Shown piece by piece: positions 7,177 through 34,015 of a DNA stretch of 42,591 bases. This DNA comes from an uncultured Acholeplasmataceae bacterium. GTDB taxonomy: Bacteria; Bacillota_I; Bacilli_A; Acholeplasmatales; Acholeplasmataceae. Both the position numbers and the translations under genes were made by a program. The stretch is from NCBI GenBank assembly GCA_964600625.1, contig CAZRJV010000002.1, positions 1-42,591 of the forward strand. Direction: 5' to 3'. Position 1 is the stretch's first letter. Every line of letters starts with the position of its first letter. A model generated the notes under the pieces. That model ran no database searches. It was not told where the DNA came from and saw nothing but the letters and a program-made list of their open reading frames with translations.

Positions 7177-7482
7177 TTTGATACAATAAAGCGATTTACT
7201 AATCGCCCTCGTATCAAATCTTTTTTTCCTGCTGATAAGGGAGCAGCCCTCTCTTATTAAGTTTGCAATAATGCTACAACAGAAAAAGAAAGTTTAAATT
7301 CATTGGTTACTTGAAATTTACATTTAATTAATTACATGACTATGTAGCCATTGACACGATATGATGTTAAAAAAGTATTATCATGTGGAATTAAAAGCAT
7401 GTAGAAGCTAAAGGTAATTTGCTACACTTTATTAATAGACTGTTTTTACTAATTATAATTAACACAAAAAAACAATATAATA

Positions 7483-7491
7483 TGCTATAAT
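7483..7491 (+). promoter_or_regulatory. Extended -10 promoter candidate (TGcTATAAT) for the BspA-like gene
   Basis: A perfect TATAAT with the TG motif one base upstream lies about 45 nt before the start codon. The -35 is weak. Confidence 0.4.
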
Positions 7492-7540
7492 TAAAACAAT
7501 AATAATTAGAAATAAAATTTATTGAAATGAGGAAGTGACT

Positions 7541-13623: not shown

Positions 13624-14304
13624 ATGAAACCATTAATAGAAATGATTGGCGTTACCAAAGATTTTATCCAAGGCGACAACATTATTAGAGCTTTAAAAGA
13701 AACTAACTTTACTGCTTACGAAGGCGAATTAATAGCTATCGTTGGTCCATCTGGATCAGGAAAATCAACCTTCTTAACTATTTTAGGCGGACTTCAAAAA
13801 CCCACCACTGGGAGAGTTCTATTAAACGGTAAACCCTTTAGTGATTTAGATGTTCAGGAAAAATCAAAAATTAGATTAGATAGTATTGGATTTATTTTAC
13901 AAGCATCTAATTTAATCCCTTTTTTGACTATCAAAGAACAAATGATTTTGTACAATAAAATCACTAAAACAAAGATAAATCAATCATGGATGAACGAATT
14001 ATTTTTAAAGTTAGACGTTGAAAAACTAAAAAATAAATACCCTAATTCATTATCTGGGGGTGAAAGACAAAGAGCAGCAATTGCGAAAGCATTGTATCAT
14101 CAACCTTCAGTCATTTTTGCTGATGAACCAACAGCCAGTTTAGATACTAAAAAAGCTTATGAAGTCGTAAAACTTTTGGCTAAAGAAACAAAAGAACAAA
14201 AGAAGGCTACCATTATGGTGACTCATGATGAAAGAATGTTAGAGTTTTGTGATAAGGTGTATGAAATAACCGATGGTGTATTAACTGAAAGACAAAGAAC
14301 ATGA
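13624..14304 (+). CDS. ABC transporter ATP-binding protein
   Basis: Walker A GPSGSGKST, signature LSGGERQR and Walker B VIFADEPT. A GGAGG RBS precedes the ATG at 13624. Confidence 0.9.
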   Translation: MKPLIEMIGVTKDFIQGDNIIRALKETNFTAYEGELIAIVGPSGSGKSTFLTILGGLQKPTTGRVLLNGKPFSDLDVQEKSKIRLDSIGFILQASNLIPFLTIKEQMILYNKITKTKINQSWMNELFLKLDVEKLKNKYPNSLSGGERQRAAIAKALYHQPSVIFADEPTASLDTKKAYEVVKLLAKETKEQKKATIMVTHDERMLEFCDKVYEITDGVLTERQRT

Positions 14305-15554
14305 ACGTAGGATTTGCTTGTTTATCGATTGGTGTTTATCATAATGATTATAAAACAATCAGAAAAGATAATCTAAGCGATGATAAACTCATCGAGATTA
14401 TTCAATATAACCTAGAATCATTAGAAAATATCATTGACTACAATATTAAAAACAATATTAAGTTGTTTAGAATTTCCAGTGATTTAATTCCGTTTGGGTC
14501 TAGCCCACTTAATTCATTAAAAAGGTGGGAAATATTCAAAGATAAGTTTGATTTAATCGCAGAAAAGATTAAAAAATATAATATTCGTGTTTCGATGCAT
14601 CCGGGTCAATACACGGTTTTAAACTCGCCTGATGAAGGTGTTGTTGATAGGTCGATTAAAGACCTTGTTTATCATGCTAAGGTATTAGAGGCTCTAAAAA
14701 CTGGAACTTCATCTAAGATTATTTTGCATATTGGTGGTGTTTATGGTGATAAATTAACCGCAAAAAAGCGTTTTATCATAAATTATTTACAGTTACCAGA
14801 AAATGTAAAAAAACGTTTAGTGATTGAAAACGATGAACGAAGTTATCATATATTAGATGTTTTAGAAATAAGTGAAGTAGCGAATATTCCTGTTATTTTT
14901 GATAATTTACATCATAAAATTAATCCGCCAAATCTCAATAAAACAGACCAAGAATGGATTAATTTTTGTAAAAATACGTTCAAAAAAACAGACGGAATTC
15001 AAAAGATTCATTATTCTGAACAAGATTCATTAAAACAACCTGGAGCCCATTCAAAAACGATTAATCCAGAATCATTTTTAGAATGGTTTAACTTGATAGA
15101 TAGAGAAGATATTGATATTATGCTTGAAGTAAAAGATAAAAATGTGTCAGCAATAAAAATTAAAAATTGTACCAATAAGAACCTAAAAAATCAAGACTTA
15201 GAAAATGCTTGGGCAAAATATAAATATAATGTTTTAGAATACTCACCAAAAACATACTTTCTAATTAGAGAGATGTTAAAAGATAAGATGAATCTTGATC
15301 CGGTGTTATTTTATAGAATCATTGATAACTCTTTTACTCATCCTTTATCAATAAATAATCAAATCAATGCAATAGATCATGTATGGGGTTATTTTAAAAC
15401 CAATTCAAAAGAAAAAGAAATCTATCTAAAAAAGCTAGAGAAACTTAAACAAGGTACATTAACCGTTAAATCAATGAAAAAATATTTGTATGGATTAGCG
15501 ATTAGTACTAAAATGAATTATTTATTAGAATCCTATTATTTTGAATTAATATAG
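14301..15554 (+). CDS. uvsE: UV DNA damage endonuclease UvsE (UVDE) with a ~100-aa C-terminal extension
   Basis: VGFACLSIG...LFRISSDLIPFGS...MHPGQYTVLNSP...ILHIGG...IENDE are UVDE motifs. The start overlaps the ABC ATPase stop (ATGA). The C-terminal tail (HVWGYFK...EKEIYL...) resembles DUF1722 by recollection only. Confidence 0.85.
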   Translation: MNVGFACLSIGVYHNDYKTIRKDNLSDDKLIEIIQYNLESLENIIDYNIKNNIKLFRISSDLIPFGSSPLNSLKRWEIFKDKFDLIAEKIKKYNIRVSMHPGQYTVLNSPDEGVVDRSIKDLVYHAKVLEALKTGTSSKIILHIGGVYGDKLTAKKRFIINYLQLPENVKKRLVIENDERSYHILDVLEISEVANIPVIFDNLHHKINPPNLNKTDQEWINFCKNTFKKTDGIQKIHYSEQDSLKQPGAHSKTINPESFLEWFNLIDREDIDIMLEVKDKNVSAIKIKNCTNKNLKNQDLENAWAKYKYNVLEYSPKTYFLIREMLKDKMNLDPVLFYRIIDNSFTHPLSINNQINAIDHVWGYFKTNSKEKEIYLKKLEKLKQGTLTVKSMKKYLYGLAISTKMNYLLESYYFELI

Positions 15555-15555
15555 T

Positions 15556-15585
15556 AAAACCATCGGTTGGTACCGATGGTTTTTA
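15556..15585. terminator. Bidirectional terminator between uvsE and the DeoR gene
   Basis: aaaaccatcggt-tggt-accgatggttttt, a perfect 12-bp stem that includes the A/T tails. Confidence 0.75.
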
Positions 15586-15656: not shown

Positions 15657-16427
15657 TTATTTTGCAATAATTAATTCAACACCAGCTTTATTGAATGCTT
15701 CAATATAATGCTCGTTGGGTATTTTATCTGTAATAATATAATCGATATCTTCAAAATCACAAGAAGTACATAAAAATATCTTATCGAATTTGGTTTGATC
15801 AGCTAGAAGTATGTGAATTTTTGAGTTTTTTAACATTTGCTTTTTTACAAGGGATTGTTCTAAAGAAGCTTCGGTTATACCAGACGACAAAGATATCCCT
15901 CCACATGAAAATATAAAGGCATTACAATTAAAATTTTTAATGTATTCTACAGTTGTTGCTCCAAGAATAGAGTTGGTATTACTGTATATAATACCTCCTG
16001 GTAAATGGACTTGTGCATTAACGTTTGGATTACTAGTTATTAATGATGCATTATGAAGTCCGTTTGTTATAATCTTAATATTTTGTAATCCAGTCATCAA
16101 AGATAAGACATACCCGGCTGTAGAACTTGAATCGACAAAATAAGATTCATTTTTTGATAACAATGGTAAACAGCTTAGAGCAATTTTATGTTTTTCTTTT
16201 GTTCTTGTTTGTACTCTGACTAATATGGATGATTCAGTAGAAGAAGATTCGATTAAAGAAGAATTACCGTGTGTACGAACGATTACTCCGTTTTGTTCCA
16301 GTTTAATTAAATCTCTTCTCAAAGTTGATTCACTTATATATAATTGTTTTTGAATTAATTTATTTGGCACAGATTTTTCTTTTTTTATGATTTCAAATAT
16401 TTTTTTTTGCCTATCATTCAGTATCAT
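15657..16427 (-). CDS. DeoR/GlpR family transcriptional regulator
   Basis: N-terminal HTH (RQKKIFEIIKKEKSVPNKLIQKQLYISESTLRRDLIKLEQNGVIVRTHG) plus a DeoR C-terminal sugar-phosphate sensor domain. It is divergent from the sugar operon. Confidence 0.85.
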   Translation of the reverse strand: MILNDRQKKIFEIIKKEKSVPNKLIQKQLYISESTLRRDLIKLEQNGVIVRTHGNSSLIESSSTESSILVRVQTRTKEKHKIALSCLPLLSKNESYFVDSSSTAGYVLSLMTGLQNIKIITNGLHNASLITSNPNVNAQVHLPGGIIYSNTNSILGATTVEYIKNFNCNAFIFSCGGISLSSGITEASLEQSLVKKQMLKNSKIHILLADQTKFDKIFLCTSCDFEDIDYIITDKIPNEHYIEAFNKAGVELIIAK

Positions 16428-16505: not shown

Positions 16506-16535
16506 TTGACATTAATTGTTCAAAAGTGATAAAGT
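16506..16535 (+). promoter_or_regulatory. Promoter candidate for the rhamnose/glycan operon (-35 TTGACA, 18-nt spacer, extended -10 TGaTAAAGT)
   Basis: ttgaca-ttaattgttcaaaagtga-taaagt. The -35 is back-to-back with the deoR -35, 15 bp away. Confidence 0.55.
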
Positions 16536-16560: not shown

Positions 16561-16608
16561 ACATAAAAATGTTATTATTATATGTAATGACTAATGGAGG
16601 TGCTAACA

Positions 16609-17853
16609 TTGAATAAAATCACAATGGCTGTACTAGGTTTTGGACAAAGAGGAATTGTATTTTCTAATGTAGCAAAAGATTTTAAAGATGAAGTTGAACT
16701 TGTGGCTGTATGTGAGAAAAATCAAGATAAATTTGACATGATTAAAAACAAATATTATTTAAATGAAAGTCAAATTTACCAAAATGAAAATGATTTTTTT
16801 TCAAAAGGCAAATTAGCCGATATTTTAATTATTTCTACTATGGATCAAGATCATTATCTACATACAATGAAGGCATTAGATGTTGGATATGACATTTTAT
16901 TGGAAAAACCAATCGCATTAACAAAGGAACATATTTTTAAAATTAAAGAAAAAGCCAACAAACTGAATAGAAAAATAGCTGTTGCACACGTATTAAGATA
17001 TACCCCTTTCTATCAAGAAATTAAAAAAGTGATTGATTCCAAGTTAATTGGTCAGATTGCTTCAATACACCAAACAGAAAATGTGGGGTATCTTCATTAT
17101 GCACATAGTTACGTAAGAGGTAATTGGCATAATTCTAATGTTTCAAGCCCGATGATCCTTGCTAAAAGTTGTCATGATATCGACATTATTAACTATTTAA
17201 TGGGACAACGTGTAGAATATTTGTCATCTTTTGGTTCACTCTTTTATTTTAAAAAAGAGAATATGCCAAAAGGAGCAGCGAAAAATTGTATAGATTGTAA
17301 AGTGGAATGCCCATTTAACGCAATAAATTTTTATGAAAAAAATAAAGATTGGATGGCATTCTTTACACTGGAAACGGATGTTTTAAAAGTAATGTCTAAT
17401 AGAAATTTGAATTATGGAAAATGTGTTTATGATATGGACAATAATGTAGTTGATCATCAAGTCCTTAATATGCAATATGAAAATGGCACAACCGCATCGT
17501 TTTTAATGACTGCATTTTCAAAAACAACGCATAGAAGAATTGAAATAAAAGGAACTCTAGGAGAAATTGTTGGAGACCTAGAAGATAATATTATTCATGT
17601 GATGCCATATGGAAAAGATAACTATGAAATAAATATCGCTCTACTCACATCCGATTTAAGTTATCATTCGGGCGGTGATAAAAATCTTTTAATAGATTTT
17701 GTTAGAGGAATCAGAGATAATCAGCCATTTAATACTGACATTAATAATGCTGTAGAAAGTCATTATCTTGCTTTTAATGCTGAAGAATCACGATTAAAAA
17801 ATGGCTTAGTCATTGATGCTAAAAAAGAGTGGGTTCATTATGGACGTAACTAA
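16609..17853 (+). CDS. Gfo/Idh/MocA family oxidoreductase
   Basis: Rossmann N-terminus MAVLGFGQRG and the EKP motif (LLEKPIA). The TTG at 16609 lies 8 nt after GGAGG; alternative starts are 16594 and 16624. Confidence 0.8.
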   Translation: MNKITMAVLGFGQRGIVFSNVAKDFKDEVELVAVCEKNQDKFDMIKNKYYLNESQIYQNENDFFSKGKLADILIISTMDQDHYLHTMKALDVGYDILLEKPIALTKEHIFKIKEKANKLNRKIAVAHVLRYTPFYQEIKKVIDSKLIGQIASIHQTENVGYLHYAHSYVRGNWHNSNVSSPMILAKSCHDIDIINYLMGQRVEYLSSFGSLFYFKKENMPKGAAKNCIDCKVECPFNAINFYEKNKDWMAFFTLETDVLKVMSNRNLNYGKCVYDMDNNVVDHQVLNMQYENGTTASFLMTAFSKTTHRRIEIKGTLGEIVGDLEDNIIHVMPYGKDNYEINIALLTSDLSYHSGGDKNLLIDFVRGIRDNQPFNTDINNAVESHYLAFNAEESRLKNGLVIDAKKEWVHYGRN

Positions 17854-19300
17854 ACATTATATAACGATTGATGTTGGTGCGAGTTCTGGAAGAATCATCG
17901 TATATTCTTTCGACAAAGAAATAAAAAGCCATGAAGTTCATCGTTTTAAAAATAAACCGTATTCTGAAAAAAATCATTTGCTTTGGAGTTTTACTCATAT
18001 TATGAATGAAATTTATGAAGGTTTAACTAAAGCATTTCAATATGAAAGTGAAATTAGCGCTATTGGTATAGATTCATGGGGGTGCGATTACGGTTACATT
18101 GATTTTACTGGGAAACTTATACAAAACCCATATAGTTATCGAGATTTAAGAACTGCAAACATTGAATCTATTACGAATAAGTATTTTAGTAGAGAATCAT
18201 TATATAAAAAAACAGGTATACAACATTTAAGATTCAATACAATTTATCAAATAGTTGATGATCTAATTAATCACAAAGAAATACTATCTAAAGCAAATAA
18301 ATTATTAATGATCCCAGATTTAATAGCTTATCATTTGACTGGAATTATAAAAATGGAGTTAACAAATTTATCAACGACCTCATTTTATGATTCGATAAAT
18401 CATGAAATTATTGATGAAGTTAATAAACTTGGTTATCCAACCTCATTGATTCCTGAAGTTATTAAACCAGGGGAATTTTATGGCAATATTTTACCGCATA
18501 TAGCTCAAAAATATAATTTGAAAGAAGTACCAGTAATTGCTGTGTGCACACATGATACAGCCTCAGCTGTCCATAGTTTACAGTTATCAAAAACTGACAC
18601 TTATATATCATCGGGGACTTGGAGTTTGATTGGTAAATTGTTGGATAAGCCATTAATAAATAATAATACTTTCAAAAAATCATATACTAATGAAATCGGA
18701 TTTAACAATAAAATAAGATTTTTAAAAAATATATCAGGTTTTTGGATTAAAAATTTAATTTTAGAAGCATTTAATCAAGTAAAGGTAGAGTATGATGAGT
18801 TAGACAGATTAATAGAACAAACGCTTGATTTTGATTCAATTATAGATCTTGATCACAACGATTTTGAAGTTGGAGAGAATATTGTCGAAAAAATACAAAC
18901 TCATTGTAGAAAAACAAATCAGAAAGTTCCTCATAAATTAGAAGAATTTATCAGCGTATTTAATTACAGCTTAGTTTGTAAATATAGGCAACATATTGAA
19001 ACTCTTGATAATTTGACTGATTATAAGACTAATCAAATATTTATTATTGGCGGAGGTGCTTCAAACAGTTTAATTAATCAAATGACTGCAGATATTACTG
19101 GAATTAAAGTCATTGAAGGTAACAATGAAGCCACGTCGCTAGGAAATGCTTTTGTTTTACATCAAGCAATTAACCAAATAGAAGATGTAACGGTAAAAAG
19201 TTTATTTATTAATAATGAAAAAAAAGAATTTTTGCCAAAAAAAGATTTAACAGAGGTTTATAAAAAATATATAAAACTTATGAAAGGGACATGTTTATGA
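17840..19300 (+). CDS. rhaB: Rhamnulokinase (FGGY family)
   Basis: The FGGY N-terminus IDVGASSGR, the overall length, and its position directly upstream of rhaA and rhaD. The start overlaps the upstream stop. Confidence 0.8.
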   Translation: MDVTKHYITIDVGASSGRIIVYSFDKEIKSHEVHRFKNKPYSEKNHLLWSFTHIMNEIYEGLTKAFQYESEISAIGIDSWGCDYGYIDFTGKLIQNPYSYRDLRTANIESITNKYFSRESLYKKTGIQHLRFNTIYQIVDDLINHKEILSKANKLLMIPDLIAYHLTGIIKMELTNLSTTSFYDSINHEIIDEVNKLGYPTSLIPEVIKPGEFYGNILPHIAQKYNLKEVPVIAVCTHDTASAVHSLQLSKTDTYISSGTWSLIGKLLDKPLINNNTFKKSYTNEIGFNNKIRFLKNISGFWIKNLILEAFNQVKVEYDELDRLIEQTLDFDSIIDLDHNDFEVGENIVEKIQTHCRKTNQKVPHKLEEFISVFNYSLVCKYRQHIETLDNLTDYKTNQIFIIGGGASNSLINQMTADITGIKVIEGNNEATSLGNAFVLHQAINQIEDVTVKSLFINNEKKEFLPKKDLTEVYKKYIKLMKGTCL

Positions 19301-20538
19301 GTGTAATTACACGATATAATCAAGCTAAACAATTATATGAATCACTTGGCGTTGATGTGGAAAAAGCAATTGAAACATTAAAAAACACTCCAATTTCTAT
19401 TCAATGTTGGCAAGGTGATGATGTTCAAGGATTTTATAATAAACAAGCGTTATCTGGAGGTATATCCGTTACTGGAAATTATCCTTTTAAAGCGAACAAT
19501 ATTAAAGAATTAAGACAAGATATTGAAGAGGTATTGAAACTAGTTCCATTTGATCATCGATTAAGTTTACACGCTATCTATTTAGATACTAAAGATAAAA
19601 TTGGATTGGATGAAATTGAACCTATTCATTTTGAATCTTGGGTTCAATGGGCTAAAAACAACAATGTTAAACTTGATTTTAATCCAACTTTGTTTTCACA
19701 CCCGTTATCATCAACTGGTTTTACATTATCTTCTAATGATGAGGATATTAGAAACTTTTGGATACGTCATGTAAAGCAATCTAGAAAAATATCTAATTAT
19801 TTTGGGGAAGAACTTAACTCAAGAAGTGTATGTAATTTATGGATTCCTGATGGCTATAAAGATACACCATATTCAAGATTGAACCCTAGAAAATTGTTAA
19901 AAGAGTCCCTTGATCAAATTTATAAGACTAAATACCCAAATGTGATTGACACTTTAGAATCAAAATTATTTGGTATTGGCGCTGAATCTTATACCACTGG
20001 ATCACATGAATTCTATTTAACTTACGCAGTGAAAAACAATTTATCTGTTTGTTTAGATGCCGGTCATTTTCATCCTACTGAACAAGTAAGTGATAAACTT
20101 TCATCAATTTCGCTTTTTACAGACCATCTAATGTTACATGTATCAAGACCAGTTAGATGGGATTCTGATCATGTCGTAAGTTTTAATGATGATTTACAAA
20201 ATATTACTGATGCATTAGTAAGAGATGAACTACTGAATAAAACCTCAATTGGTTTGGATTACTTTGATGCATCAATAAATAGAATAGCTGCTTGGGTAAT
20301 TGGAATACGAAACACTCAAAAAGCACTTCTTAAATCGTTATTAGAACCTAAAGAATTATTACATCAGATTGAACAAGAACAGAATTATACAAAAAGACTA
20401 GTTTATATAGAAGAATTAAAATCTTTACCATTTGGATTAATCTATGATTATATTTGTTTAAAAAATAATAAACCTGTTGGATTAGATTATCTAAAAGAGA
20501 TAGAAGCTTATGAAGTTTCATTGAAAGGAAAACGCTAA
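19297..20538 (+). CDS. rhaA: L-rhamnose isomerase
   Basis: There are long stretches of identity to E. coli RhaA as I recall it: CWQGDDV.GF, TGNYPGKA-like, LHAIYL, ESKLFGIGAESYT.GS.EFY, CLDAGHFHPTE, LHVSRPVRWDSDHVV and DFFDASINRIAAWVIG.RN..KALL..LLEP. Confidence 0.95.
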   Translation: MSVITRYNQAKQLYESLGVDVEKAIETLKNTPISIQCWQGDDVQGFYNKQALSGGISVTGNYPFKANNIKELRQDIEEVLKLVPFDHRLSLHAIYLDTKDKIGLDEIEPIHFESWVQWAKNNNVKLDFNPTLFSHPLSSTGFTLSSNDEDIRNFWIRHVKQSRKISNYFGEELNSRSVCNLWIPDGYKDTPYSRLNPRKLLKESLDQIYKTKYPNVIDTLESKLFGIGAESYTTGSHEFYLTYAVKNNLSVCLDAGHFHPTEQVSDKLSSISLFTDHLMLHVSRPVRWDSDHVVSFNDDLQNITDALVRDELLNKTSIGLDYFDASINRIAAWVIGIRNTQKALLKSLLEPKELLHQIEQEQNYTKRLVYIEELKSLPFGLIYDYICLKNNKPVGLDYLKEIEAYEVSLKGKR

Positions 20539-20539
20539 T

Positions 20540-21352
20540 ATGAAAAATATTTTAGAATCTAAATTCATTCAGGAATTTTCTAATGTTATTGATAGAATGT
20601 ATCTTAACGGCTGGGATGAACGAAATGCAGGAAACGTATCCTATCTTTTGTTAGAAGAAGAACTATCACCTTATCTTGATTTATCTAAAAAAGGACGAGT
20701 TCATCAATTACAAATAGATGCTCATAAATTAGCAGGAAAATACGTATTAGTTACTGGGTCAGGGAAATACTTTAGAAACGTTAAAGGTAATCCCGAAGCC
20801 AATAGTTGTATCATAAGAATTTCTCAATGTGGAACACACGCAGAAATCTTATGGGGTTTAAAAGAAGGTGAAGTTCCAACCTCAGAATTAAGTACACATT
20901 TATCATCTCATATAGCTAGGTTAGAGGTAGATGATACCCATAGAGTAATTATTCATACCCATGCTACTTATTTAAACATTATGAGTGCTGTTGTTGATTT
21001 AGACGAAAAAAATTTTACTAAAGCTTTATGGGGGTTAAATACAGAAAATATTATTATCTTTCCTGAAGGAATAGGGATAATTCCATGGGAAATACCAGGG
21101 AACGGATTAATCGGAAAAAATACAGCAAACAAAATTAAAACCTATAAAATCGTTTTGTGGCCATTACATGGTGTTGTAGCTTCAGGTGAAACTGTTGACA
21201 GTGCTTTTGGCTTGATTGAAACAGTAGAAAAAGCAGCAATGATGTACATGGTTATTAATAATTATTCAAATTATAAAACTATAAATGATGAAGAGTTAAT
21301 TAAACTTGCATCAGCATTTAAAGTTACACCTAATAAGGAGTTTATTAAATGA
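20540..21352 (+). CDS. rhaD: Rhamnulose-1-phosphate aldolase (class II aldolase)
   Basis: GWDERNAGNVS, VTGSGKYFRNV, ILWGL...VPTSEL..H, HTHAT, FPEGIGI.PW..PG and LWP.HGV...G....AFGLI.T.EK closely parallel E. coli RhaD. Confidence 0.95.
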   Translation: MKNILESKFIQEFSNVIDRMYLNGWDERNAGNVSYLLLEEELSPYLDLSKKGRVHQLQIDAHKLAGKYVLVTGSGKYFRNVKGNPEANSCIIRISQCGTHAEILWGLKEGEVPTSELSTHLSSHIARLEVDDTHRVIIHTHATYLNIMSAVVDLDEKNFTKALWGLNTENIIIFPEGIGIIPWEIPGNGLIGKNTANKIKTYKIVLWPLHGVVASGETVDSAFGLIETVEKAAMMYMVINNYSNYKTINDEELIKLASAFKVTPNKEFIK

Positions 21353-22341
21353 AAAAAATGAGCTTAATTGTTTTAACATTATTATCGGTAATATTTATAA
21401 GTGGTTGTGAAAAGCCTGAAAACAGTGACAATAATGATGATAACGATGACAAAAATGTTGAACTACTTGAAGATCCAATATTTGCGACAGGATTTAATCT
21501 TTTAGGAATTAGTCCGGTTGAGGATGGTAGAACAATTAAAAGACACTTAGACTATGGTGGTACAGCACTGCCTAGTTCAAGACCAATATGGCATATGGCA
21601 CAATGGTGGACGCCTTATGATGTTGTTGATGCAACCTATAAGGAAGTTAATAATGTTCATATATATGAAACCCCTTCAAGAATATTGAAAATGAATCCTG
21701 AAGATAATGGATATCTATATATGGAATTGTTTGGATTAAAAGAATACGAAAATGGACCAAGAAAATTAAATGAACCATGGACACATGCTTTGATAGAACA
21801 AGATTTCAATGAATCTGTTGGAATGTCTGAATTATCAAGTTTGATGTTGAAAATGGAAGTTACCATACATCATGTCAATAATTTAATGGGAAGCGATTAT
21901 GATCCAGGAAAACATGCTGCTCAGTTATTATGGTACTTAACTTTGAGAAATGTAGTTCCTGAAGGTTCAGAAGATGTTGGACAAAATGGGGATTTCCTTT
22001 GGTTTGGTATTCCGATTTATGACAATAGAAATGATTTTATTCCTCACTCAGCTCATATAGATCAAGGAGCCGCTGGTACTACAGGAAAATTAATTTACTC
22101 AATGTCCTCGAAAAATTATTTTGATGAAAAAATCCAAATGAACAAAACGTATAACATTGAAATCGATGTATTGCCTTATTTAAAAGAAGCATTTATATAT
22201 GCAGTCAATAACAACGCACTAGTTGGCGCACGTTTTGAAAATATGCAAATAGGATATATGAACTTTGGATGGGAAGTGCCTGGGACGTTTGATGTAGCTT
22301 CCACAATTAGGGGTATTTCAATTAAAGCTATTAGAAAGTAG
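21349..22341 (+). CDS. Lipoprotein of unassigned family (paralogue 1 of 3)
   Basis: Signal peptide with lipobox (VIFISGC) and an Asp/Asn-rich linker. The start overlaps the rhaD stop (ATGA). It shares blocks with 22349-23242 and 32366-33340 (see findings). Confidence 0.85.
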   Translation: MKKMSLIVLTLLSVIFISGCEKPENSDNNDDNDDKNVELLEDPIFATGFNLLGISPVEDGRTIKRHLDYGGTALPSSRPIWHMAQWWTPYDVVDATYKEVNNVHIYETPSRILKMNPEDNGYLYMELFGLKEYENGPRKLNEPWTHALIEQDFNESVGMSELSSLMLKMEVTIHHVNNLMGSDYDPGKHAAQLLWYLTLRNVVPEGSEDVGQNGDFLWFGIPIYDNRNDFIPHSAHIDQGAAGTTGKLIYSMSSKNYFDEKIQMNKTYNIEIDVLPYLKEAFIYAVNNNALVGARFENMQIGYMNFGWEVPGTFDVASTIRGISIKAIRK

Positions 22342-22348
22342 GTAATTA

Positions 22349-23242
22349 ATGAAAATAGTAAATTTGTTAACAGATTCATCCTTTGAAACAGGGTTTCATT
22401 TACTTGGTATCAATCCAACTATCAACCACAGAAAAGTTTATAAGCATTTGGATTATGATGGTAAAGCAAAATATTCAAAAATACCTATTTGGCAAATGGC
22501 TCAATGGTGGACGCCTTATAATGTTTTAGATGCTAAATTTAAAATAATAAATAATAACTATATTTATGAAACACCTTCTAGAAGAATAGAAGTAAATCCT
22601 TATAACCAAGGCTACTTGAGAATGAATTTATCTGCTTCAAAAGAATACTTAAATGGGGCACGTTTAGATTCAAGTAAACCATGGAGTCACTTATTGATAG
22701 AACAAGATTTTCAAAAACACGTAGCACTAGATGGTCTTGAGGCATTAAGGGTTCAATTGACTTTTAACATTGAGAAAGTTATTAATCAAAGCCCCGAAAC
22801 TTATAATCCTAATTATCATGCTGCTCAATTAGTTTGGTATTTTGTTATTCATGATGCAAGTTACGAGGGATCTAAGTATGGTAATTTTAATGAATACTTC
22901 TGGTTTGGTATTCCTATTTACGATAACCGTCATGACTTTATTGATGAACATCATCATGTTGATCAAGGTGGTATTGGTACAACTGGTAGATTAATTTACT
23001 CAATGAGCAATAAAAATTATTTAAATGAAAAGATAATATTTGGAAAAACATACAACATTGATATTAATGTTCTTCCATTTATCTTAAAAGCAAAAACTTA
23101 TGCGATTCAGAATGGTTACTTAAAACATAATGAAGAATCAAAATATGAAATAGGATACATGAATTTTGGATGGGAAATCCCAGGTATGTTTGATGTTGAA
23201 TCATATATTCAAAATATGAATGTGATTGCGACAATAATATAA
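22349..23242 (+). CDS. Cytoplasmic protein of the same unassigned family (paralogue 2 of 3, no signal peptide)
   Basis: It begins directly at the conserved core (MKIVNLLTDSSFETGFHLLGI...). By eye it is roughly half identical to paralogue 1. Confidence 0.85.
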   Translation: MKIVNLLTDSSFETGFHLLGINPTINHRKVYKHLDYDGKAKYSKIPIWQMAQWWTPYNVLDAKFKIINNNYIYETPSRRIEVNPYNQGYLRMNLSASKEYLNGARLDSSKPWSHLLIEQDFQKHVALDGLEALRVQLTFNIEKVINQSPETYNPNYHAAQLVWYFVIHDASYEGSKYGNFNEYFWFGIPIYDNRHDFIDEHHHVDQGGIGTTGRLIYSMSNKNYLNEKIIFGKTYNIDINVLPFILKAKTYAIQNGYLKHNEESKYEIGYMNFGWEIPGMFDVESYIQNMNVIATII

Positions 23243-23284
23243 ATAAAGAAAAAACAACAATAGTTGAAAAATACGGAGGAAAGT

Positions 23285-25696
23285 ATGAAAAAATTAGTTA
23301 CAATTTTAAGTTTAGTTCTCGTTTTTGTTGTGGGTCTTATGACGACCTCGATAAACGCGGCAGTACTACCAGAAAATCCACCAGTAATTGGCGAAGAGTC
23401 AACGGTAACGGATTTTTACTCACATTGGCAACCAGGAATGTTTGGTGCAAACAGATTAAACGATAAAGGTGTCGTAATGGCTCTAACGTCTGGATTTGGT
23501 GCTAGAGCTGGTTTTAGAACACCTTACAACGTCACAGATTTTGAAGCACAGTTTGATTTTTCTTATCTAGATCCTGGTACAGTTGCAATCACATTTTTTG
23601 GTCCACAAGGATCATATATTAGTGGAAATGGAGCAGTTTTATCGATTGAGTTCCTTAAACATACAACTGTGGCTAATAAGTATTTAGTTGCTATTCAAGT
23701 TGGATCTGGATTACATCACGTTTCTTTACCTGAATTCATTCTAGAAGAACAAGGTGATTGGGAAGATGCGGCTTGGAAAGGTTATCAATTAGTAGCAGAA
23801 AATGATATTATAACTTTTTCTATGAAAGAAATAGGTTCAGATGTCTTAGTAACTATTAATGGGCATGAATTCACGGTAGCTTCAAATGTTTTATTTGCTG
23901 AAATGGTTGATAAAACAAGCGTACACTATTTAATAGGTGCACTAAATATAGATAATTCGATTCAAACTGTAACAGCTAATTATATTCTTGATGCACAAAG
24001 AAGAACCTATTATGAAGCAGAAGGTGTGTTTGAAACCTTTAAATCTAATTTAATTGAGTTAGAAACATTATTGTTAGAAGATTTATCAGTTGTCACAAAT
24101 GTTCAAGCAGCTCAAGCTATTAACGCTAATCTTGATATTGATACATTATATGAATTTGACAAAAACTTTTTTAGAGATAGATTAGATGCTGCACAAGCAA
24201 CTTTACAAGCTGCAATTAGTGAGCTTGGTGGGGATATTATTTTAGATGAGTTAGAATCTATCATAGTTCAATTAGAAACAAGAGTAAATGCAATCGTTGA
24301 TTATACCACTGCTAACCAAGCTATCAATCAACTTACAACAGCAAAAGATAAAGAAATTTCTATAGATGATTCTGAATTTACACCTGAACAAGTAACAAGA
24401 TTTGCGGGATTGAGTGAAAGAATTGCTGATGCAGACGCATTAATTATTACCAAAGTTCATGATTTAGCTTTAGCACAAATAGTAGAATTTGAAACCAATG
24501 TTTTAGATCTTTCAACAATTGAAAAAGTTAACATCGCAATAGATTCTAAAAATGCAGTGAGAACAAATCTATTTGCATTATTAGAAGAAGAAATCAGTAC
24601 AGCCTTCACAGCAAGATATGATGCAGCTGTAACTACGTTAACGGATGCTACTAATTCTCAAAGCGGTTGGATTGTTGGGGAAAATACTTACGTTATAGAA
24701 AACAATAATACAATTCAAGCTACTTTCTTTGGTGAAGGTCTCGGTGAAAAAGGTAATGGATTATTTTATGAATTAGAAAAATTTGATGTTAGAAACTTCC
24801 AAATGACGTTAAAAGTTGAATCATTAACTAAAGAAGCAGGTGGATGGATTAGTTTTGGTATTATGGAAAAACCTGAAATTTTCTCAACAGCAGATGATTC
24901 AAGTGTACAAGACAATAAAGGTTTATTTTTCTTAATAATTCCTGAAGGAACAAATGGAGCAAGAATTGAAGTATATATGTTAAGTCTTTATTCTAACCGC
25001 TTCTTTGATGCACAACGTACTGAAATCTTACATGTTACATTAGAAAATGACTTAGTTATTGATTTCTCAACTGTTATGGAAGAAGTATCTGGTGTCATTG
25101 AAGAATATCTTTCAATTAGCATTGGCGGAGATGTAATGGATGCAGATAGAATTACCACACGTGCATTAAAGACGTCATTATCTGATAACTTAGGTCATTT
25201 ATACATTGCAGGTAGTGGAGGAACTAGTTCTTCTAAAAATACCGTTACAATTAAATTAATTAATGGTAAAGACGCTACTGCAGAAGCATTACAACAAGAC
25301 TATATTCCAGAACCATATCTAGTTACTTTAGAAGGTTCATTTGAAAAAGGTAGTTTATCAGATATGAATATTGAATTTTACAATCGAGAATTAGATTTCG
25401 TTGTAAAAGTCAATGGAACAGAATTAGCTGATACTAACTATACATATGCAAACAACGTCCTAAAAATTAAAGCAACTTATTTAGAAACTTTAGAAGTTGG
25501 TGATCACGTTGTTAGTATTGAAACAGAAGGTGGAAACATTACTGTACCATTTACAGTAGATTCAGAACCAGTTGAACCAGAAACACCATCAAATGGCATT
25601 CCATGGGTATGGATATCTGTTGTTGGAGGCTTAATTGTTTTAGGCGCTGCTGGATTTGTAGTTTATACATTTGTTATTAAGAAAAAGAAAGCATAA
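23285..25696 (+). CDS. Large multidomain surface protein with an N-terminal signal peptide and a C-terminal TM anchor (803 aa)
   Basis: GGAGGA RBS before the ATG at 23285. Signal peptide MKKLVTILSLVLVFVVGLMTTSINA. Two beta-rich modules flank a ~230-aa helical Ala/Gln/Glu-rich region. An Ig/X2-like module follows (YLVTLEGSFEKG...VNGTEL...YTYANNVLKIKATYLETLEVGDHVVSIETEGGNITVPFTV), then a Pro/Glu linker. The C-terminal helix is WVWISVVGGLIVLGAAGFVVYTFVIKKKKA. Confidence 0.8.
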   Translation: MKKLVTILSLVLVFVVGLMTTSINAAVLPENPPVIGEESTVTDFYSHWQPGMFGANRLNDKGVVMALTSGFGARAGFRTPYNVTDFEAQFDFSYLDPGTVAITFFGPQGSYISGNGAVLSIEFLKHTTVANKYLVAIQVGSGLHHVSLPEFILEEQGDWEDAAWKGYQLVAENDIITFSMKEIGSDVLVTINGHEFTVASNVLFAEMVDKTSVHYLIGALNIDNSIQTVTANYILDAQRRTYYEAEGVFETFKSNLIELETLLLEDLSVVTNVQAAQAINANLDIDTLYEFDKNFFRDRLDAAQATLQAAISELGGDIILDELESIIVQLETRVNAIVDYTTANQAINQLTTAKDKEISIDDSEFTPEQVTRFAGLSERIADADALIITKVHDLALAQIVEFETNVLDLSTIEKVNIAIDSKNAVRTNLFALLEEEISTAFTARYDAAVTTLTDATNSQSGWIVGENTYVIENNNTIQATFFGEGLGEKGNGLFYELEKFDVRNFQMTLKVESLTKEAGGWISFGIMEKPEIFSTADDSSVQDNKGLFFLIIPEGTNGARIEVYMLSLYSNRFFDAQRTEILHVTLENDLVIDFSTVMEEVSGVIEEYLSISIGGDVMDADRITTRALKTSLSDNLGHLYIAGSGGTSSSKNTVTIKLINGKDATAEALQQDYIPEPYLVTLEGSFEKGSLSDMNIEFYNRELDFVVKVNGTELADTNYTYANNVLKIKATYLETLEVGDHVVSIETEGGNITVPFTVDSEPVEPETPSNGIPWVWISVVGGLIVLGAAGFVVYTFVIKKKKA

Positions 25697-26836
25697 ATGA
25701 AAACAAAAGTAACCTTAAAGCGTTTAATAATGCTATTGGGTTTACTCTTGCCAGCTATACTATTTAGTGCATGTAATAAAAAGTTAACTTATCAATACGG
25801 AGAAAAAGAAATGATTGTTAAGGTATGGGAAGATAATATCATTTACAATGAAACTGTTGTCCTTGAAGATAATGGTACTACTATTAGTGGTCAACTACTA
25901 TTTGAACCAACGGAAATAATTTCTGTTCGTGATTATACACTAGAAAAAGAATACGATATTACGGAATATACTTTTGATAAAAATTTCATTATTCGTAGTG
26001 AAACATCAACAATGCCTTATTTAACTACAGAACAACTTGCAGGAAAAAACCTACCAGAAGAATATGCTTTTAGTACCTATCAAGCAAAAGAACCAGGAAC
26101 TGAAATTATTTTTACTGAAGGCATTGGTATAGTGATGCACCAAATAGCAGTGACATATAAACATGAAGGTAAGTGGACAGGGATAACACCTGTCCACCAA
26201 CCTTTAGCTCTTCAACAATTTAAAGAAAAGTTAGAAGCTGGTTTAGAAGTAACAATTGTTTTAAATGGTGACAGTATTTCTACTGGAGCAAATTCATCTG
26301 GAGTATTAGGTATTAAACCCTACATGGATGATTTTGGTACCATGTTTAAAACATATTTAGAAAATACATATAATAGTAAGGTAAATTTTATTAACACCAG
26401 TCTTGGTGGAACTATGTCATTGTGGGGAAAAGAAAATGTGGATCTAAATGTGAACCAATATCAACCGGATTTAGTTATTATCGGATTCGGAATGAATGAT
26501 GGTTCTTTAGGTGTTAAAGCTAATACATATCATGACAATATTGAATTTATGATTAAGTCAATAAAAGCAAGAAATTCGGATGCGAATATCATTTTAATGC
26601 ATACTATTTATGCAAATCCATTATCGCTTCAAAATCAAAATCAAGAATCATATTTAACAGAACTAGAAAACTTAAAAAAACAATATGGTGTTGCGTTACT
26701 AGATATGGGCAGTATTACTGAAACTATGTATAAAACAAAAAAAGGGGTAGATATATTGGCCAATAATATCAATCACCCAAGCGATTTTTTAGTGAGAATA
26801 TATACAGCTAGTTTAATACACACTTTGGAGGGTTAA
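25697..26836 (+). CDS. SGNH/GDSL hydrolase lipoprotein (putative carbohydrate esterase) with a ~180-aa N-terminal domain of unknown function
   Basis: Lipobox ILFSAC. SGNH block I LNGDSISTG, block III GFGMNDG and block V INHPSD. The ATG abuts the upstream TAA. Confidence 0.8.
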   Translation: MKTKVTLKRLIMLLGLLLPAILFSACNKKLTYQYGEKEMIVKVWEDNIIYNETVVLEDNGTTISGQLLFEPTEIISVRDYTLEKEYDITEYTFDKNFIIRSETSTMPYLTTEQLAGKNLPEEYAFSTYQAKEPGTEIIFTEGIGIVMHQIAVTYKHEGKWTGITPVHQPLALQQFKEKLEAGLEVTIVLNGDSISTGANSSGVLGIKPYMDDFGTMFKTYLENTYNSKVNFINTSLGGTMSLWGKENVDLNVNQYQPDLVIIGFGMNDGSLGVKANTYHDNIEFMIKSIKARNSDANIILMHTIYANPLSLQNQNQESYLTELENLKKQYGVALLDMGSITETMYKTKKGVDILANNINHPSDFLVRIYTASLIHTLEG

Positions 26837-26839
26837 AAA

Positions 26840-29104
26840 TTGTTGGAATATAATGAGAAAAATAATTGTCTAGTAGAATCTAAATATGATATCAAAGATG
26901 AAGCACATAATGCAGCACTTTTTACAACAGGTAATGGGTATTTCGGGATAAGGGGTTCGTTTGAGGAATTTGGGTCTTTAAACGTTCAAGGTGGATTTAT
27001 CAGAGGTTTATTCGATGAGATTGTTGAAATCCCATCAATCTATGTAGATAATATATACATGCGAAAATACTATATCAATGAGCTTGAAGCGAAACAATTT
27101 GAATTTCAAGATTCATGTATCAATTTTGCAGATATTTTATTTTTAAGATTTAAAATAGGTGATTCATACTTCTACCCGTGGGAAGGCCAAATACTTACCT
27201 GGGTAAGATATATTGATACCAATGATGGATCATTAATACGGGAAGTTATATGGCAAGATGAACGTGGTAACAAAACTAAGTTCAACTTCAAACGATTTGC
27301 ATCTTTCTCAAATAATCATCATTACTTTATTACTGCTAAAGTTGAAAAAATGAATCATGATTTACCTATAACCGTAGAATCAGGAATAGATACTTGGATC
27401 AAGACAAATGGGCAGAAAAAATCTAAATTGATTGGTGAGCCAAATCAAAATCAATATCTATTTAGTATGGGTGAAAAATATAACCATCAAAGTGCTGTTT
27501 CACTTCATACAGTTTACAGTTTTAAAGCAGATAAAAGTTATGAAATTAACGATGGATGTTACTATGAATCGCAAACATCAACGAAAGAAAAAATAATTGA
27601 AGTTTTCAAATATGTATCAGTACATATTACACCAGATTTAGAAGAAAATGAATCATTGGTTGAAGTTAATAACAAAGATATGATAGAAATGAAAAAAACA
27701 TCATTTGAAAAACATTATCAAGACCATTTGATGGCGTATAAAACATCATTTGACATGATTAACATTAATCTAAGTCATAAAAGTGATGATGCTTTATTAA
27801 AGTACGCTAATTATCAAACATTAATTGGCATAGATAGATATGATCAAGTACATAGTCTTAGTGCGAAGAACTTGACTGGCGAAAAGTATAATCAATTTGT
27901 TTGGTGGGATGCTGAAATATTTCAATTTCCGGTCTATCTTATGACGAATCCTAATGCAGCGAAAAATACATTAATGTATCGATATAATAGACTAGAAGAA
28001 TCTAAAAAAAATGCACAATTGGAAGGCTTAAAGGGGGCAAAATTTGCTTTCTGCTCATCAGTAAAAGGTGATGAGAAAGTTTGGGCTTACGCAAGACATC
28101 CATTTATGCAAATCCATATTAATTCAGATATTGCTTATGCAATTTTAATGTATTATCGGGTTACAAAAGATACACGCTTTATGATAGAATATGGTATCGA
28201 AATGTTAGTTGAAATCGCTAAGTACTTTATAAGTCGAGTCACATATGACAAAAAAACTGATGAATATTATCTCAACCAAGTTACTGGTACTGATGAACAT
28301 CACCCTTATGTCAATAATAATAGCTATACGAATTTTATCGTTTCTTATATTTTTGAAGAAACAATTAAATGGCTAAATAGTAATGAATCAGTAAAAACAA
28401 GACTTGTGGTGGATGAAATATTAATCAAGCAGATGAATCAGATCGCTTCAAAAATTAGAAAAGTAGTCACTGAAGATGGTTATATTCCTCAATTTGATGG
28501 TTATTTTGATTTAAAGCCAACGCTTGAAGTAACTGGCAATGGTGCTGCTAAAAATTTTCAAATGAAACAATCTGGCCTATACCATGAGTCTCAAATAATT
28601 AAACAACCTGATGTCATCATGCTTTTTACGTATATAGATATTCCAATACTAAAGTCATCTTATGAAAAAAATTGGGATTACTATGAAAAAATGTGCGAAG
28701 CATCGTCTTCATTAACTTATCCAGTTCATGCAATTGCAGCTATTGATCATCAAGAATATGATAAATTTCATGATTATTGGTACAAGAGTGTTGCAATAGA
28801 TATTATTGATAGTCATAATGAAGCAAAATTAGGATTACATGCAGCATGTATAGCTGGTGGTTGGTATAGTATTTTTAGAGGTTTATTTGGGTTTAAACCA
28901 AATATCGATTATCTAGAAGTTAACCCAAAATATTTTGAATATTGGGGAGAGGTTGAAATTCATTTTATTTATCAGGGAAGCAAAGTATATGCACAATTAT
29001 CGAAAGATTCACTAGTTCTTAAGTCAGACGGTACATTTCGGTTGAATTACAATAATAAAGTTATACATCATGACAAATTGACGATGTTAAAGTTAGATGT
29101 ATAA
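26840..29104 (+). CDS. Glycoside hydrolase family 65 protein (probable alpha-glucoside phosphorylase)
   Basis: Its size (754 aa), the N-terminal beta-sandwich start (FTTGNGYFGIRGSFEE) and the (alpha/alpha)6 core with GTDEHH (general-acid Glu region) fit GH65. An SSSLTYPVHA segment is also present. The TTG start lies 7 nt after GGAGGG. It is linked to pgmB. Confidence 0.8.
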   Translation: MLEYNEKNNCLVESKYDIKDEAHNAALFTTGNGYFGIRGSFEEFGSLNVQGGFIRGLFDEIVEIPSIYVDNIYMRKYYINELEAKQFEFQDSCINFADILFLRFKIGDSYFYPWEGQILTWVRYIDTNDGSLIREVIWQDERGNKTKFNFKRFASFSNNHHYFITAKVEKMNHDLPITVESGIDTWIKTNGQKKSKLIGEPNQNQYLFSMGEKYNHQSAVSLHTVYSFKADKSYEINDGCYYESQTSTKEKIIEVFKYVSVHITPDLEENESLVEVNNKDMIEMKKTSFEKHYQDHLMAYKTSFDMININLSHKSDDALLKYANYQTLIGIDRYDQVHSLSAKNLTGEKYNQFVWWDAEIFQFPVYLMTNPNAAKNTLMYRYNRLEESKKNAQLEGLKGAKFAFCSSVKGDEKVWAYARHPFMQIHINSDIAYAILMYYRVTKDTRFMIEYGIEMLVEIAKYFISRVTYDKKTDEYYLNQVTGTDEHHPYVNNNSYTNFIVSYIFEETIKWLNSNESVKTRLVVDEILIKQMNQIASKIRKVVTEDGYIPQFDGYFDLKPTLEVTGNGAAKNFQMKQSGLYHESQIIKQPDVIMLFTYIDIPILKSSYEKNWDYYEKMCEASSSLTYPVHAIAAIDHQEYDKFHDYWYKSVAIDIIDSHNEAKLGLHAACIAGGWYSIFRGLFGFKPNIDYLEVNPKYFEYWGEVEIHFIYQGSKVYAQLSKDSLVLKSDGTFRLNYNNKVIHHDKLTMLKLDV

Positions 29105-29119: not shown

Positions 29120-30610
29120 ATGAAAAAAATCTTTATTTTAATATCTCTAATCGTATTTGGAGGTTTACTAGCTAATTGTGACAATAACAATGGTTATGAT
29201 GGCGAAATTAAAACCATTGTTGTTGATGCTGGGGGAGACATTGGTAATTTTAATACGACGCCAATTATGACTCCATCAGAAGCCAATCCATTTCCATATA
29301 ATACACTAGAAACGTTAGCTAGAGAGTGGGAAGCGTTAAATCCAGGATACAAAATTGAAATTAATAAAACATCTTCTAATGGTGATAGAGCGATTCTCGT
29401 GCCACAATTAAACAATAAAACTGCCCCAGATATCACTTATCAAAATGGAACAGTCGTTAATATGGATTTAGGGAAAGATTACTATGTTGCACTTAATGAT
29501 TATTTAGACAAACCTAATAAATACGTTGAAGGTAATGTAGCATGGAAAGATTTATATATCCCTGAAGAATTAGCACAAAACATGGCATCGGATGGTAAAT
29601 TTTATACTATCACACTTGAAAAAATTCCTGTTGGCATTATGTATAATAAAGAAATTTTAGCTGCAGCAGGTGTTGAAGAAATTCCAAAGACATACGCTGA
29701 ATTTTTGCAAGCCCTAAGTGATATCAAGACTAAAACAGATAAAGAAGCTTATACAACAACATATACATGGTATGATATCGTGTTAGAATCAACAATGTTT
29801 TCAGATATATTGACGGAGTCAGATGTGTTGACTGTCAATGGTAAAATCGATACTGAAGAATTTGTAAGAGCTTTTGATAAAGGAATATGGAATCCAACAC
29901 TTAATGCATTAGGCGCTAACGCAACATTAGAAGGTAATCGATATTATGAATATATTAAAGTTACCAAAATGAAAACAGAATATTATCCAGAAAACTGGCA
30001 AAGTTATGATGCGCATACTAATTTTGTTAATGGAAATTTAGCAATGGTTGAAGTAACAGGTAGAGAAATTAGAAAACTGTCAATTAACAAAAATGTTGAT
30101 TTCGAATGGGGCGTAATGCCTTATCCTGATTTAACAACCGAAACAACAGAGCATGCCTATGCGCCTTCAATTAGAGGTGTAGCGGGTTTAGCCACTCCAT
30201 GGTTTATTACAAATTCTGCAGTTCAAAAAGGTACAGTAGAAGGTGCTGTTGACTTTTTAATGTTCTTGACTGCGCCTGAGAATAATAATCGTTTAATTGG
30301 AGATTTAAAAGGTGGTATTCCTTTAAATCCAGATGCATCAACTGAAATAGCACCATATCTACAAGATTTATTAGATATTTATACAGAAGACAAAGAAGAT
30401 GTTGCTACTAATAATCGTGTATATTGGGGTTCGGTTAACTCATGGGCAATGTTAGGTTATGCATACAACACTGCTTTTATAAAGAGTTTACAAGATATAG
30501 ATAATGGTGTTAAAACACCTGAAGAGGTAGCTAAATCATTGGCTCAAACTATTAAGAATACGGTTCAAGCTTTAAAAATAGAAAATAATTACGATGAAAC
30601 GAAGTGGTAA
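29120..30610 (+). CDS. ABC transporter extracellular solute-binding lipoprotein (CUT1, family 1)
   Basis: Lipobox GGLLANC, 496 aa, sitting directly upstream of MalF/MalG-type permeases. Confidence 0.8.
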   Translation: MKKIFILISLIVFGGLLANCDNNNGYDGEIKTIVVDAGGDIGNFNTTPIMTPSEANPFPYNTLETLAREWEALNPGYKIEINKTSSNGDRAILVPQLNNKTAPDITYQNGTVVNMDLGKDYYVALNDYLDKPNKYVEGNVAWKDLYIPEELAQNMASDGKFYTITLEKIPVGIMYNKEILAAAGVEEIPKTYAEFLQALSDIKTKTDKEAYTTTYTWYDIVLESTMFSDILTESDVLTVNGKIDTEEFVRAFDKGIWNPTLNALGANATLEGNRYYEYIKVTKMKTEYYPENWQSYDAHTNFVNGNLAMVEVTGREIRKLSINKNVDFEWGVMPYPDLTTETTEHAYAPSIRGVAGLATPWFITNSAVQKGTVEGAVDFLMFLTAPENNNRLIGDLKGGIPLNPDASTEIAPYLQDLLDIYTEDKEDVATNNRVYWGSVNSWAMLGYAYNTAFIKSLQDIDNGVKTPEEVAKSLAQTIKNTVQALKIENNYDETKW

Positions 30611-31507: not shown

Positions 31508-31508
31508 T

Positions 31509-33984: not shown

Positions 33985-34015
33985 AAAAAACCATCGGTTG
34001 AAATCGATGGTTTTT
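33985..34015. terminator. Bidirectional terminator between pgmB and the ABC permease gene
   Basis: aaaaaaccatcg-gttgaaat-cgatggttttt. Confidence 0.7.

Follow-up and report, generated by a model that had tools for sequence, protein, structure and literature searches.

A candidate new glycoside hydrolase family with a GH12-like predicted fold in a glucose- and rhamnose-directed operon of an Acholeplasma-like bacterium

Which protein makes the disaccharide on which a glucosyl-rhamnose phosphorylase acts? The question is raised by a 14-gene operon in a stretch of 42,591 nucleotides, hereafter the window, from an uncultured Acholeplasmataceae bacterium (assembly GCA_964600625.1, contig CAZRJV010000002.1, positions 1 to 42,591). 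The operon takes only glucose, by way of beta-Glc1P (the beta form of glucose 1-phosphate), and L-rhamnose, it strips acyl groups, and apart from a GH65 protein no recognised glycoside hydrolase (GH) is encoded in it. Hence, its unassigned proteins must cut the polymer down to the disaccharide Glc-alpha1,3-Rha. There are four such proteins: one has 810 amino acids (aa) and the other three, here called A, B and C, form a single family. We lean, with moderate confidence, towards the view that A, B and C are a candidate new GH family, similar in fold to clan GH-C, which would cleave a glycan outside the cell and trim oligosaccharides inside it. The combination of a GH-like predicted fold, an enzyme-like conservation of acidic residues, and the presence of exported and cytoplasmic forms across distant lineages favours this view. 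Coordinates below are positions in the window and residue numbers are those of open reading frame (ORF) B. The three genes are the following.

21349 to 22341, plus strand: paralogue A, 330 aa, exported lipoprotein (lipobox FISGC) of the family with the GH12-like predicted fold.
22349 to 23242, plus strand: paralogue B, 297 aa, signal-less and hence presumably cytoplasmic member of the same family.
32366 to 33340, plus strand: paralogue C, 324 aa, diverged lipoprotein of the A/B family, with lipobox LLFAC (...SILLFAC).

A and B are tightly packed behind rhaD. The initial annotation had read the ATG of A at 21349 as overlapping the stop of rhaD and had placed B 7 nt after A, and both statements are exact in the ORF list and in the raw sequence: the TGA of rhaD lies at 21350-21352, giving an ATGA overlap at 21349-21352, and A ends at 22341 while B starts at 22349. 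The start of B cannot be moved upstream because its frame is closed by a TAA at 22343-22345. Over 294 residues A and B share 51% identity (E 2e-107), which excludes a chance resemblance, and the conserved blocks originally quoted for them are all found in both. Their N-termini also proved to be as first described, i.e. a signal peptide, a lipobox and a tether rich in Asp and Asn in A, and no signal in B. The N-terminus of A reads MKKMSLIVLTLLSVIFISGC, ending in ...VIFISGC, and is followed by the Asp/Asn-rich linker. In B just 8 residues precede a D-x-x-F-x-x-G-F motif, i.e. the protein starts at the conserved core. Our signal and lipoprotein calls are pattern-based readings of the N-terminal sequence, and by these patterns both A and C have the signal peptide and lipobox cysteine of bacterial lipoproteins. 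A retains every conserved residue of the family, E118 and E276 included.

The description of the locus as holding a tandem pair is right for A and B, but it overlooked the third paralogue, C, which is encoded in the same operon directly 3' of the ATP-binding cassette (ABC) permease genes. C shares 29% identity with B (E 1e-41), and its hhalign probability against the family profile is 100. In C, E118 is replaced by Q and W275 by Y, and most post-permease copies elsewhere, which we call C-type, carry Q or N at 118. C may be a naturally inactivated, binding variant.

What kind of protein is this? The AlphaFold2 model of B, computed from the family alignment, is nearly all beta (pLDDT 94.2, pTM 0.92), and C was modelled independently with a pLDDT of 93.2. 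When the B model was compared with the PDB using Foldseek, the first 39 matches were all GH12 endo-beta-1,4-glucanases or GH11 xylanases, the best being Cel12A of Thermotoga maritima (E 8.8e-9, probability 1.0, TM-score 0.45-0.53). For the C model the top 49 matches were all GH12 (best E 6e-10, probability 1.0), and with both models GH11 came second to GH12, at E about 1e-6. By these comparisons the B and C models have the beta-jelly-roll fold of clan GH-C. There was no match with a TM-score that would mark a solved member of the family. Matches of the B model to the carbohydrate-binding modules (CBMs) CBM27 and CBM4 were weak (E 1e-4 to 3e-3) and ranked below the 39 GH matches, and a search of viral predicted structures returned just weak, generic matches to jelly-roll tail proteins and CenC-like modules. 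The structural check proposed with the initial annotation therefore pointed to a predicted fold of GH12/GH11 glycoside hydrolases and not to a known binding module.

To see which residues might do the work, we used a set of 210 diverse domains, mostly less than 50% identical to one another. Nine positions are at least 97% conserved (D9, W48, W112, D192, R194, D205, G274, E276 and G279), with E276, D192 and D205 each at 99%. H114, Q119, H157, Q160, R105 and Y100 follow at about 91-94%, then E99 at 89% and E118 at 77%. It had been suggested that the invariant residues form an active site. The strict conservation of the acids D9, D192, D205 and E276 agrees with this, but E276 is the only one that can be placed with any confidence as a candidate catalytic residue. 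The C-terminal third of B consists of a long helix (242-254), a strand ending in N272-x-G274-x-E276, a short turn and the last strand. We compared by eye the order of elements in the predicted secondary structure of B and C with that of verified GH12 sequences (1H8V and 3AMH), which share with the family a near all-beta jelly roll, one long helix, a strand ending in [N/Q/E]-x-G-x-E, and a last strand. The acid/base Glu of GH12 is found in Q-x-G-x-E200 in Trichoderma reesei and in E-x-G-x-E231 in T. maritima. From sequence and predicted secondary structure, E276 would thus most likely be a catalytic residue, at the topological place of the GH12 acid/base.

GH12 has two catalytic glutamates on opposite sides of its cleft, the acid/base in G-T-E and the nucleophile in E-[LI]-M-[IV]-W, and a counterpart of the nucleophile is harder to place. 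The G274-x-E276 strand, 99% conserved, is in the equivalent position, yet no conserved nucleophile motif was found in the family. The candidate partner of E276 is either Glu118, or Asp192, or Asp205. E118, which is Q in C, lies on the long central strand and its number nearly equals that of two important acids of GH12, the nucleophile E116 of T. reesei and Glu116 of T. maritima; the latter is presumably the counterpart of the helper acid D99 of T. reesei. The only local hhalign match, between GDYELMIWLG and GNFNEYFWFG, was rejected as evidence, as it sets a non-conserved Asn opposite the GH12 nucleophile.

This difficulty in assigning a clear nucleophile/acid pair leaves some room for a carbohydrate-active protein other than a hydrolase, such as a polysaccharide lyase or a transglycosylase, or else a protein whose target is a non-glycosidic decoration (e.g. 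a phosphodiester or some other substituent) of cell-wall rhamnopolysaccharides. The conserved H114, Q119, H157, Q160, R105, R194 and Y100 do resemble the residue sets of beta-jelly-roll lyases, and the operon opens with a GFO/IDH/MocA oxidoreductase. Yet, there is no polysaccharide lyase (e.g. PL7) among the Pfam matches of the family or in the top 50 Foldseek matches of either the B or the C model, and the Pfam scan of the operon revealed no catabolic genes for uronates or unsaturated sugars. The oxidoreductase gene occurs in only 7 fetched loci: five of Acholeplasmatales type at 73-74% identity (including L001, L013, L015 and L017), and two (L028 and L033) at 37%. We regard this alternative as rather improbable. 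Hence, of the initial proposal of a new GH or lyase family, the GH part is supported by the predicted fold, whereas the lyase part finds support neither in the top Foldseek matches nor in the pathway.

A different possibility is that the family is not catalytic at all, but a glycan-binding module, akin to a surface glycan-binding protein or to an inactivated enzyme serving as a lectin, which would capture the polymer and pass oligosaccharides to the ABC importer, in which case the 810-aa protein would be the depolymerase. Most members are indeed exported lipoproteins or secreted, C-type copies lie right 3' of permease genes and lack Glu118, and the fold has its weak likeness to CBM27, CBM4 and CenC-like modules. 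Members are fused to GH16, BD-FAE esterase and dockerin domains, as is typical of CBMs. Fusions to a T9SS tail and to a metallo-beta-lactamase-fold domain are also seen, and tandem double-domain members occur. In addition, conservation in the cassette and lack of an assigned domain hold for the 810-aa protein too. Against this, signal-less copies are found in 21 loci, where a cytoplasmic lectin would have no obvious role, and some loci with the family and GH65 have no homologue of the 810-aa protein. With about 290 residues, the typical family domain exceeds the usual size of a CBM. Its GH12 matches are at least four orders of magnitude stronger than its CBM matches, and there was no CBM match in Pfam. 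Among the positions kept in at least 97% of the 210 domains are four acids and one Arg. Strict conservation of acids and cytoplasmic copies disfavour a pure CBM, and we consider this explanation improbable, if worth keeping in mind.

Is the proposed hydrolase family really new? No family could be assigned to A or B as single sequences, nor to a profile of 51 sequences, in Pfam, NCBIfam or the PDB sequences, and Pfam gave no match for the family proteins even at E<=1. This bears out the initial statement that they belong to no recognisable GH, polysaccharide lyase, carbohydrate esterase or CBM family. Homologues in the profile search are all named "hypothetical protein", save one whose UniRef label reads "hydroxyneurosporene synthase (CrtC)", a misnomer given that Pfam finds no CrtC match. 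The family thus appears to be new, in the sense that it has no name, no Pfam or NCBIfam model and no solved structure. The kind of system is familiar, since operons for glycan utilisation that include a candidate enzyme of beta-jelly-roll fold are nothing unusual.

The family is not small. A word-indexed search of 5.8 billion proteins returned 66 relatives and a set of one genome per species 143. When 1.84 billion representatives of clusters at 50% identity were scanned exhaustively with HMMER, 684 matched at E<=1e-3, 531 of them at E<=1e-10. Hosts include Acholeplasmatales, Bacilli, Clostridia, Verrucomicrobiota, Planctomycetota, Bacteroidota (Pedobacter, Sphingobacterium), Paenibacillus and others. 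In a rough neighbour-joining tree A and B are sister clades and the C-type copies form a clade of their own. A second cytoplasmic clade has no member in the window and includes a 285-aa protein from the Cphy_1019 locus of Lachnoclostridium phytofermentans.

On what substrate would such an enzyme act? The clues come from the rest of the locus, whose other features are these.

15556 to 15583, plus strand: terminator-like hairpin, upstream boundary of the locus.
15657 to 16427, minus strand: divergent DeoR-family regulator (Pfam HTH_DeoR and DeoRC).
16506 to 16535: promoter-like site.
16594 to 17853, plus strand: GFO/IDH/MocA oxidoreductase (Pfam), first gene of the operon.
17813 to 19300, plus strand: rhaB, rhamnulokinase-like FGGY kinase (Pfam FGGY_N/C).
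19291 to 20538, plus strand: rhaA, L-rhamnose isomerase (Pfam RhaA, E 8e-186, full length).
20540 to 21352, plus strand: rhaD, class II aldolase (Pfam Aldolase_II).
23264 to 25696, plus strand: surface protein of 810 aa, which begins with a signal sequence and ends in a membrane anchor.
25697 to 26836, plus strand: GDSL esterase lipoprotein, putative glycan deacetylase (Pfam Lipase_GDSL_2; N-terminus ...AILFSAC).
26840 to 29104, plus strand: GH65 (Pfam GH65 N and central domains).
29120 to 30610, plus strand: ABC solute-binding lipoprotein, 39.5% identical to the binding protein of the Cphy_1019 locus; its homologues have SBP_bac_1.
30614 to 31507 and 31500 to 32354, plus strand: two ABC permeases (Pfam BPD_transp_1).
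33342 to 33974, plus strand: HAD hydrolase, likely beta-phosphoglucomutase (Pfam HAD_2), last gene of the operon.
33986 to 34015, plus strand: terminator-like hairpin, downstream boundary of the locus.

The order of the operon is therefore GFO, rhaB, rhaA, rhaD, A, B, the 810-aa gene, GDSL, GH65, binding protein, two permeases, C and HAD. With hairpins on both sides and a promoter-like site, we interpret it as a single transcription unit. The DeoR gene is divergent from it and encodes a regulator also present at the equivalent position in loci L001, L002 and L003. The boundary hairpins contain near-identical 26-nt palindromes (AAACCATCGGTTG-N4-CGATGGTTT) at 15557-15582 and 33988-34013, of which none is expected by chance, and they enclose exactly the DeoR gene and the 14 operon genes. 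None of the 95 fetched loci has the motif, and no GC shift was found across the locus; the pair may represent a house terminator or else a cassette's footprint. The kinase encoded by rhaB was assigned as such because of its position beside rhaA and rhaD. As listed, this ORF has a TTG start and a 41-nt overlap with the preceding gene; its true start is probably an internal Met (MDVTKHY...) about 10 codons downstream. Similarly, the 810-aa protein probably starts at the ATG of Met8 (MKKLVTIL...). The searches of Pfam, NCBIfam and PDB gave no match for this protein beyond a weak Ig-like CBM_X2 (residues 694-758), but L001, L002 and the locus of L. phytofermentans (Cphy_1018) have homologues at the equivalent position. 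From the N-terminal sequences, A, C, the binding protein, the GDSL esterase and the 810-aa protein are predicted to be extracellular, and B, GH65, HAD and RhaBAD intracellular. Elsewhere the window, which has a GC content of 31% and closest relatives in Paracholeplasma/Acholeplasma, encodes a protein in which DUF285 ("Mycoplasma protein of unknown function") is repeated five times (7535-9274, E 2e-89), a lone Imm5-like putative immunity protein with no obvious toxin gene adjoining (11382-11942), and a 417-aa ORF in which a UV-endonuclease UvdE domain is fused to DUF1722 (14301-15554). The DUF285 protein, the GC content and the closest relatives together indicate that the window comes from Acholeplasmatales.

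The anchor of the substrate assignment is GH65. The window protein has GH65 domains and its closest characterised relative is Cphy_1019, reportedly described in 2012, with which it shares 45% identity along 735 residues (655 bits); among the other characterised GH65 proteins of the PDB the best score, 230 bits, belongs to a kojibiose phosphorylase. Cphy_1019 phosphorolyses Glc-alpha1,3-L-Rha to beta-Glc1P and L-rhamnose (PMC11442529, PMC8950772). In our literature search nothing stated which glycan is served by glucosyl-rhamnose phosphorylase (EC 2.4.1.282) or which enzymes make its disaccharide, nor did we find mention of the genes neighbouring Cphy_1019. The gene content of the window and of about two dozen syntenic loci, that of Cphy_1019 among them, suggests that the A/B/C family is the likely source of the disaccharide for this orphan phosphorylase.

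The pathway might then run as follows. The anchored 810-aa protein would hold outside the cell an O-acetylated glycan of glucose and rhamnose, e.g. a Gram-positive cell-wall glucorhamnan, which the GDSL lipoprotein would deacetylate. Lipoprotein A would cut it into oligosaccharides, whereas C, devoid of Glu118, may cut or only bind. Oligosaccharides would be imported by the binding protein and the two permeases, and signal-less B would trim them inside the cell to Glc-alpha1,3-L-Rha. GH65 would then phosphorolyse this disaccharide to beta-Glc1P and L-rhamnose, given the activity shown for the 45%-identical Cphy_1019, and the HAD enzyme and RhaA/B/D would route both products to glycolysis.

Does the genomic context of homologues agree? 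We searched 89 loci with the window proteins using tblastn. GH65 and GDSL each co-occur with the family in 24 loci, usually with the binding protein and permeases, and rhaA, our marker for rhaBAD, in only 8, all of Acholeplasmatales type or L002. The tie to rhamnose put forward in the initial annotation must therefore be reformulated: rhaBAD, the glucosyl-rhamnose phosphorylase and, in Bacteroidota, GH78 do recur, but the conserved partner is the cassette of GH65, GDSL and ABC genes and not rhaD. The usual set in the Firmicutes and Mollicutes cassettes is one exported copy, one or two signal-less ones, and another exported copy right 3' of the permeases. The pairing of extracellular and intracellular copies, first seen in the window, recurs in 21 loci. 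One fetched contig (L016, JALNXT010000298.1, 3.4 kb), binned as Candidatus Cloacimonadota, encodes counterparts of RhaA, RhaD and A that are 93-97% identical to those of the window, and is probably an Acholeplasma-like contig mis-binned into a Cloacimonadota metagenome-assembled genome.

In Bacteroidota the members lie in SusC/SusD loci. Pedobacter sp. ok626 (L092) has two, at 6537-7565 and 10001-10957, one of which has diverged strongly (E 1e-40). Between them lies a GH78-like rhamnosidase, and genes for a GH63-like enzyme and a GDSL esterase come next; this locus may be the Bacteroidota counterpart of the Firmicutes cassette. Another locus of the phylum associates the family with a GH140-like enzyme, GH127 and GH78. 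The company of GH78 and an alpha-glucosidase-like enzyme fits the logic of a substrate made of glucose, rhamnose and acetyl groups, and suggests an endo-acting role for the family there. Verrucomicrobiota and Planctomycetota have single exported copies. Homologues are thus in carbohydrate loci, as initially anticipated, in Mollicutes, Firmicutes and Bacteroidota, but not consistently so in Verrucomicrobiota and Planctomycetota. The heterogeneous neighbours in the latter two phyla, together with the single CrtC-like name of a UniRef cluster, are what one would expect if A, B and C were conserved passengers with a role unrelated to glycans (e.g. in the envelope or in stress), associated with the cassette by history. 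We find this very hard to believe. The cassette is kept with 2-4 paralogues across Mollicutes, Bacilli and Clostridia at 30-70% identity, the family was placed independently in SusC/SusD loci, and its genes in the window are tightly spaced and overlapping inside a single operon. The CrtC name is itself not backed by Pfam.

Several observations nonetheless weigh against a new GH family. The TM-scores to GH12 are only 0.45-0.54. At the sequence level nothing places the family in GH12: there is no Pfam match, the profile search of the PDB was empty, and hhalign gave a probability of at most 0.1 for family profiles against Cel12A of T. reesei (local) and of T. maritima (global), the sequences compared being exact matches to PDB 1H8V and 3AMH, respectively. 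The most obvious nucleophile candidate, Glu118, is just 77% conserved, with Q or N in most C-type copies, and the GH16, esterase and dockerin fusions would fit a large binding module as well. No recurrent partner was found among 98 ORFs flanking Verrucomicrobiota, Planctomycetota and other members. Finally, a search of the literature (genes Cphy_1013-1020, endo-rhamnosidases, glucorhamnan hydrolases, glucosyl-rhamnose and new clan GH-C families) found nothing on the family and no biochemistry of any member.

One can tentatively go further, into details that we think unlikely to hold all together. A, B and C would found a new GH family with a clan-GH-C-like fold and a different catalytic apparatus, its members being endo- and exo-acting and most plausibly alpha-L-rhamnosidases or rhamnanases that depolymerise acetylated bacterial glucorhamnans to Glc-alpha1,3-L-Rha, with C inactivated and serving as a binding protein of the importer. 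Were this true, we would know what the phosphorylase pathway naturally feeds on and which steps, so far missing, come before it. Should its members prove active, CAZy would gain a new family, with about 700 sequence clusters in Mollicutes, Firmicutes, Bacteroidota, Verrucomicrobiota and Planctomycetota, which would show how wall-less Acholeplasma-like bacteria and gut Firmicutes use rhamnose-rich glycans of bacteria or plants. The locus itself offers three natural variants of the protein: exported, cytoplasmic, and lacking Glu118.

How does the system compare with known ones? Among the closest is the Cphy_1019 locus of L. phytofermentans, in which GH65 is the sole characterised protein (PMC11442529, PMC8950772). 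Like the window, it encodes a binding protein, two permeases, an exported and a signal-less family member (a 365-aa lipoprotein and the 285-aa protein, matching the family HMM at E 6e-72 and 3e-70, respectively), a 731-aa surface protein homologous to the 810-aa protein, the GH65 itself, a GDSL esterase and, also 3' of GH65 and GDSL, a HAD gene. The two loci differ in the regulator, which is of GntR/LacI type there and DeoR here, in rhaBAD, which is not adjacent there, and in the signal-less copy, which belongs to another subclade than B.

GH12, the closest group by fold, resembles the family also in being often secreted and often single-domain. Yet, family members are 40-80 residues longer, have no detectable sequence homology to GH12, lack the nucleophile motif E-[LI]-M-[IV]-W, exist as signal-less cytoplasmic copies, and occur in a genomic context that points to alpha-glucosyl/rhamnosyl glycans and not to beta-glucans. 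The GH11 xylanases share the beta-jelly-roll architecture, but they match less well than GH12, show no sequence similarity to the family, and no xylan-related context accompanies it. CBM27, CBM4 and CenC-like modules have a distant likeness in fold, and some proteins join the family domain to catalytic modules; however, at 150-180 residues these modules are much smaller than the family domain and their matches are far weaker.

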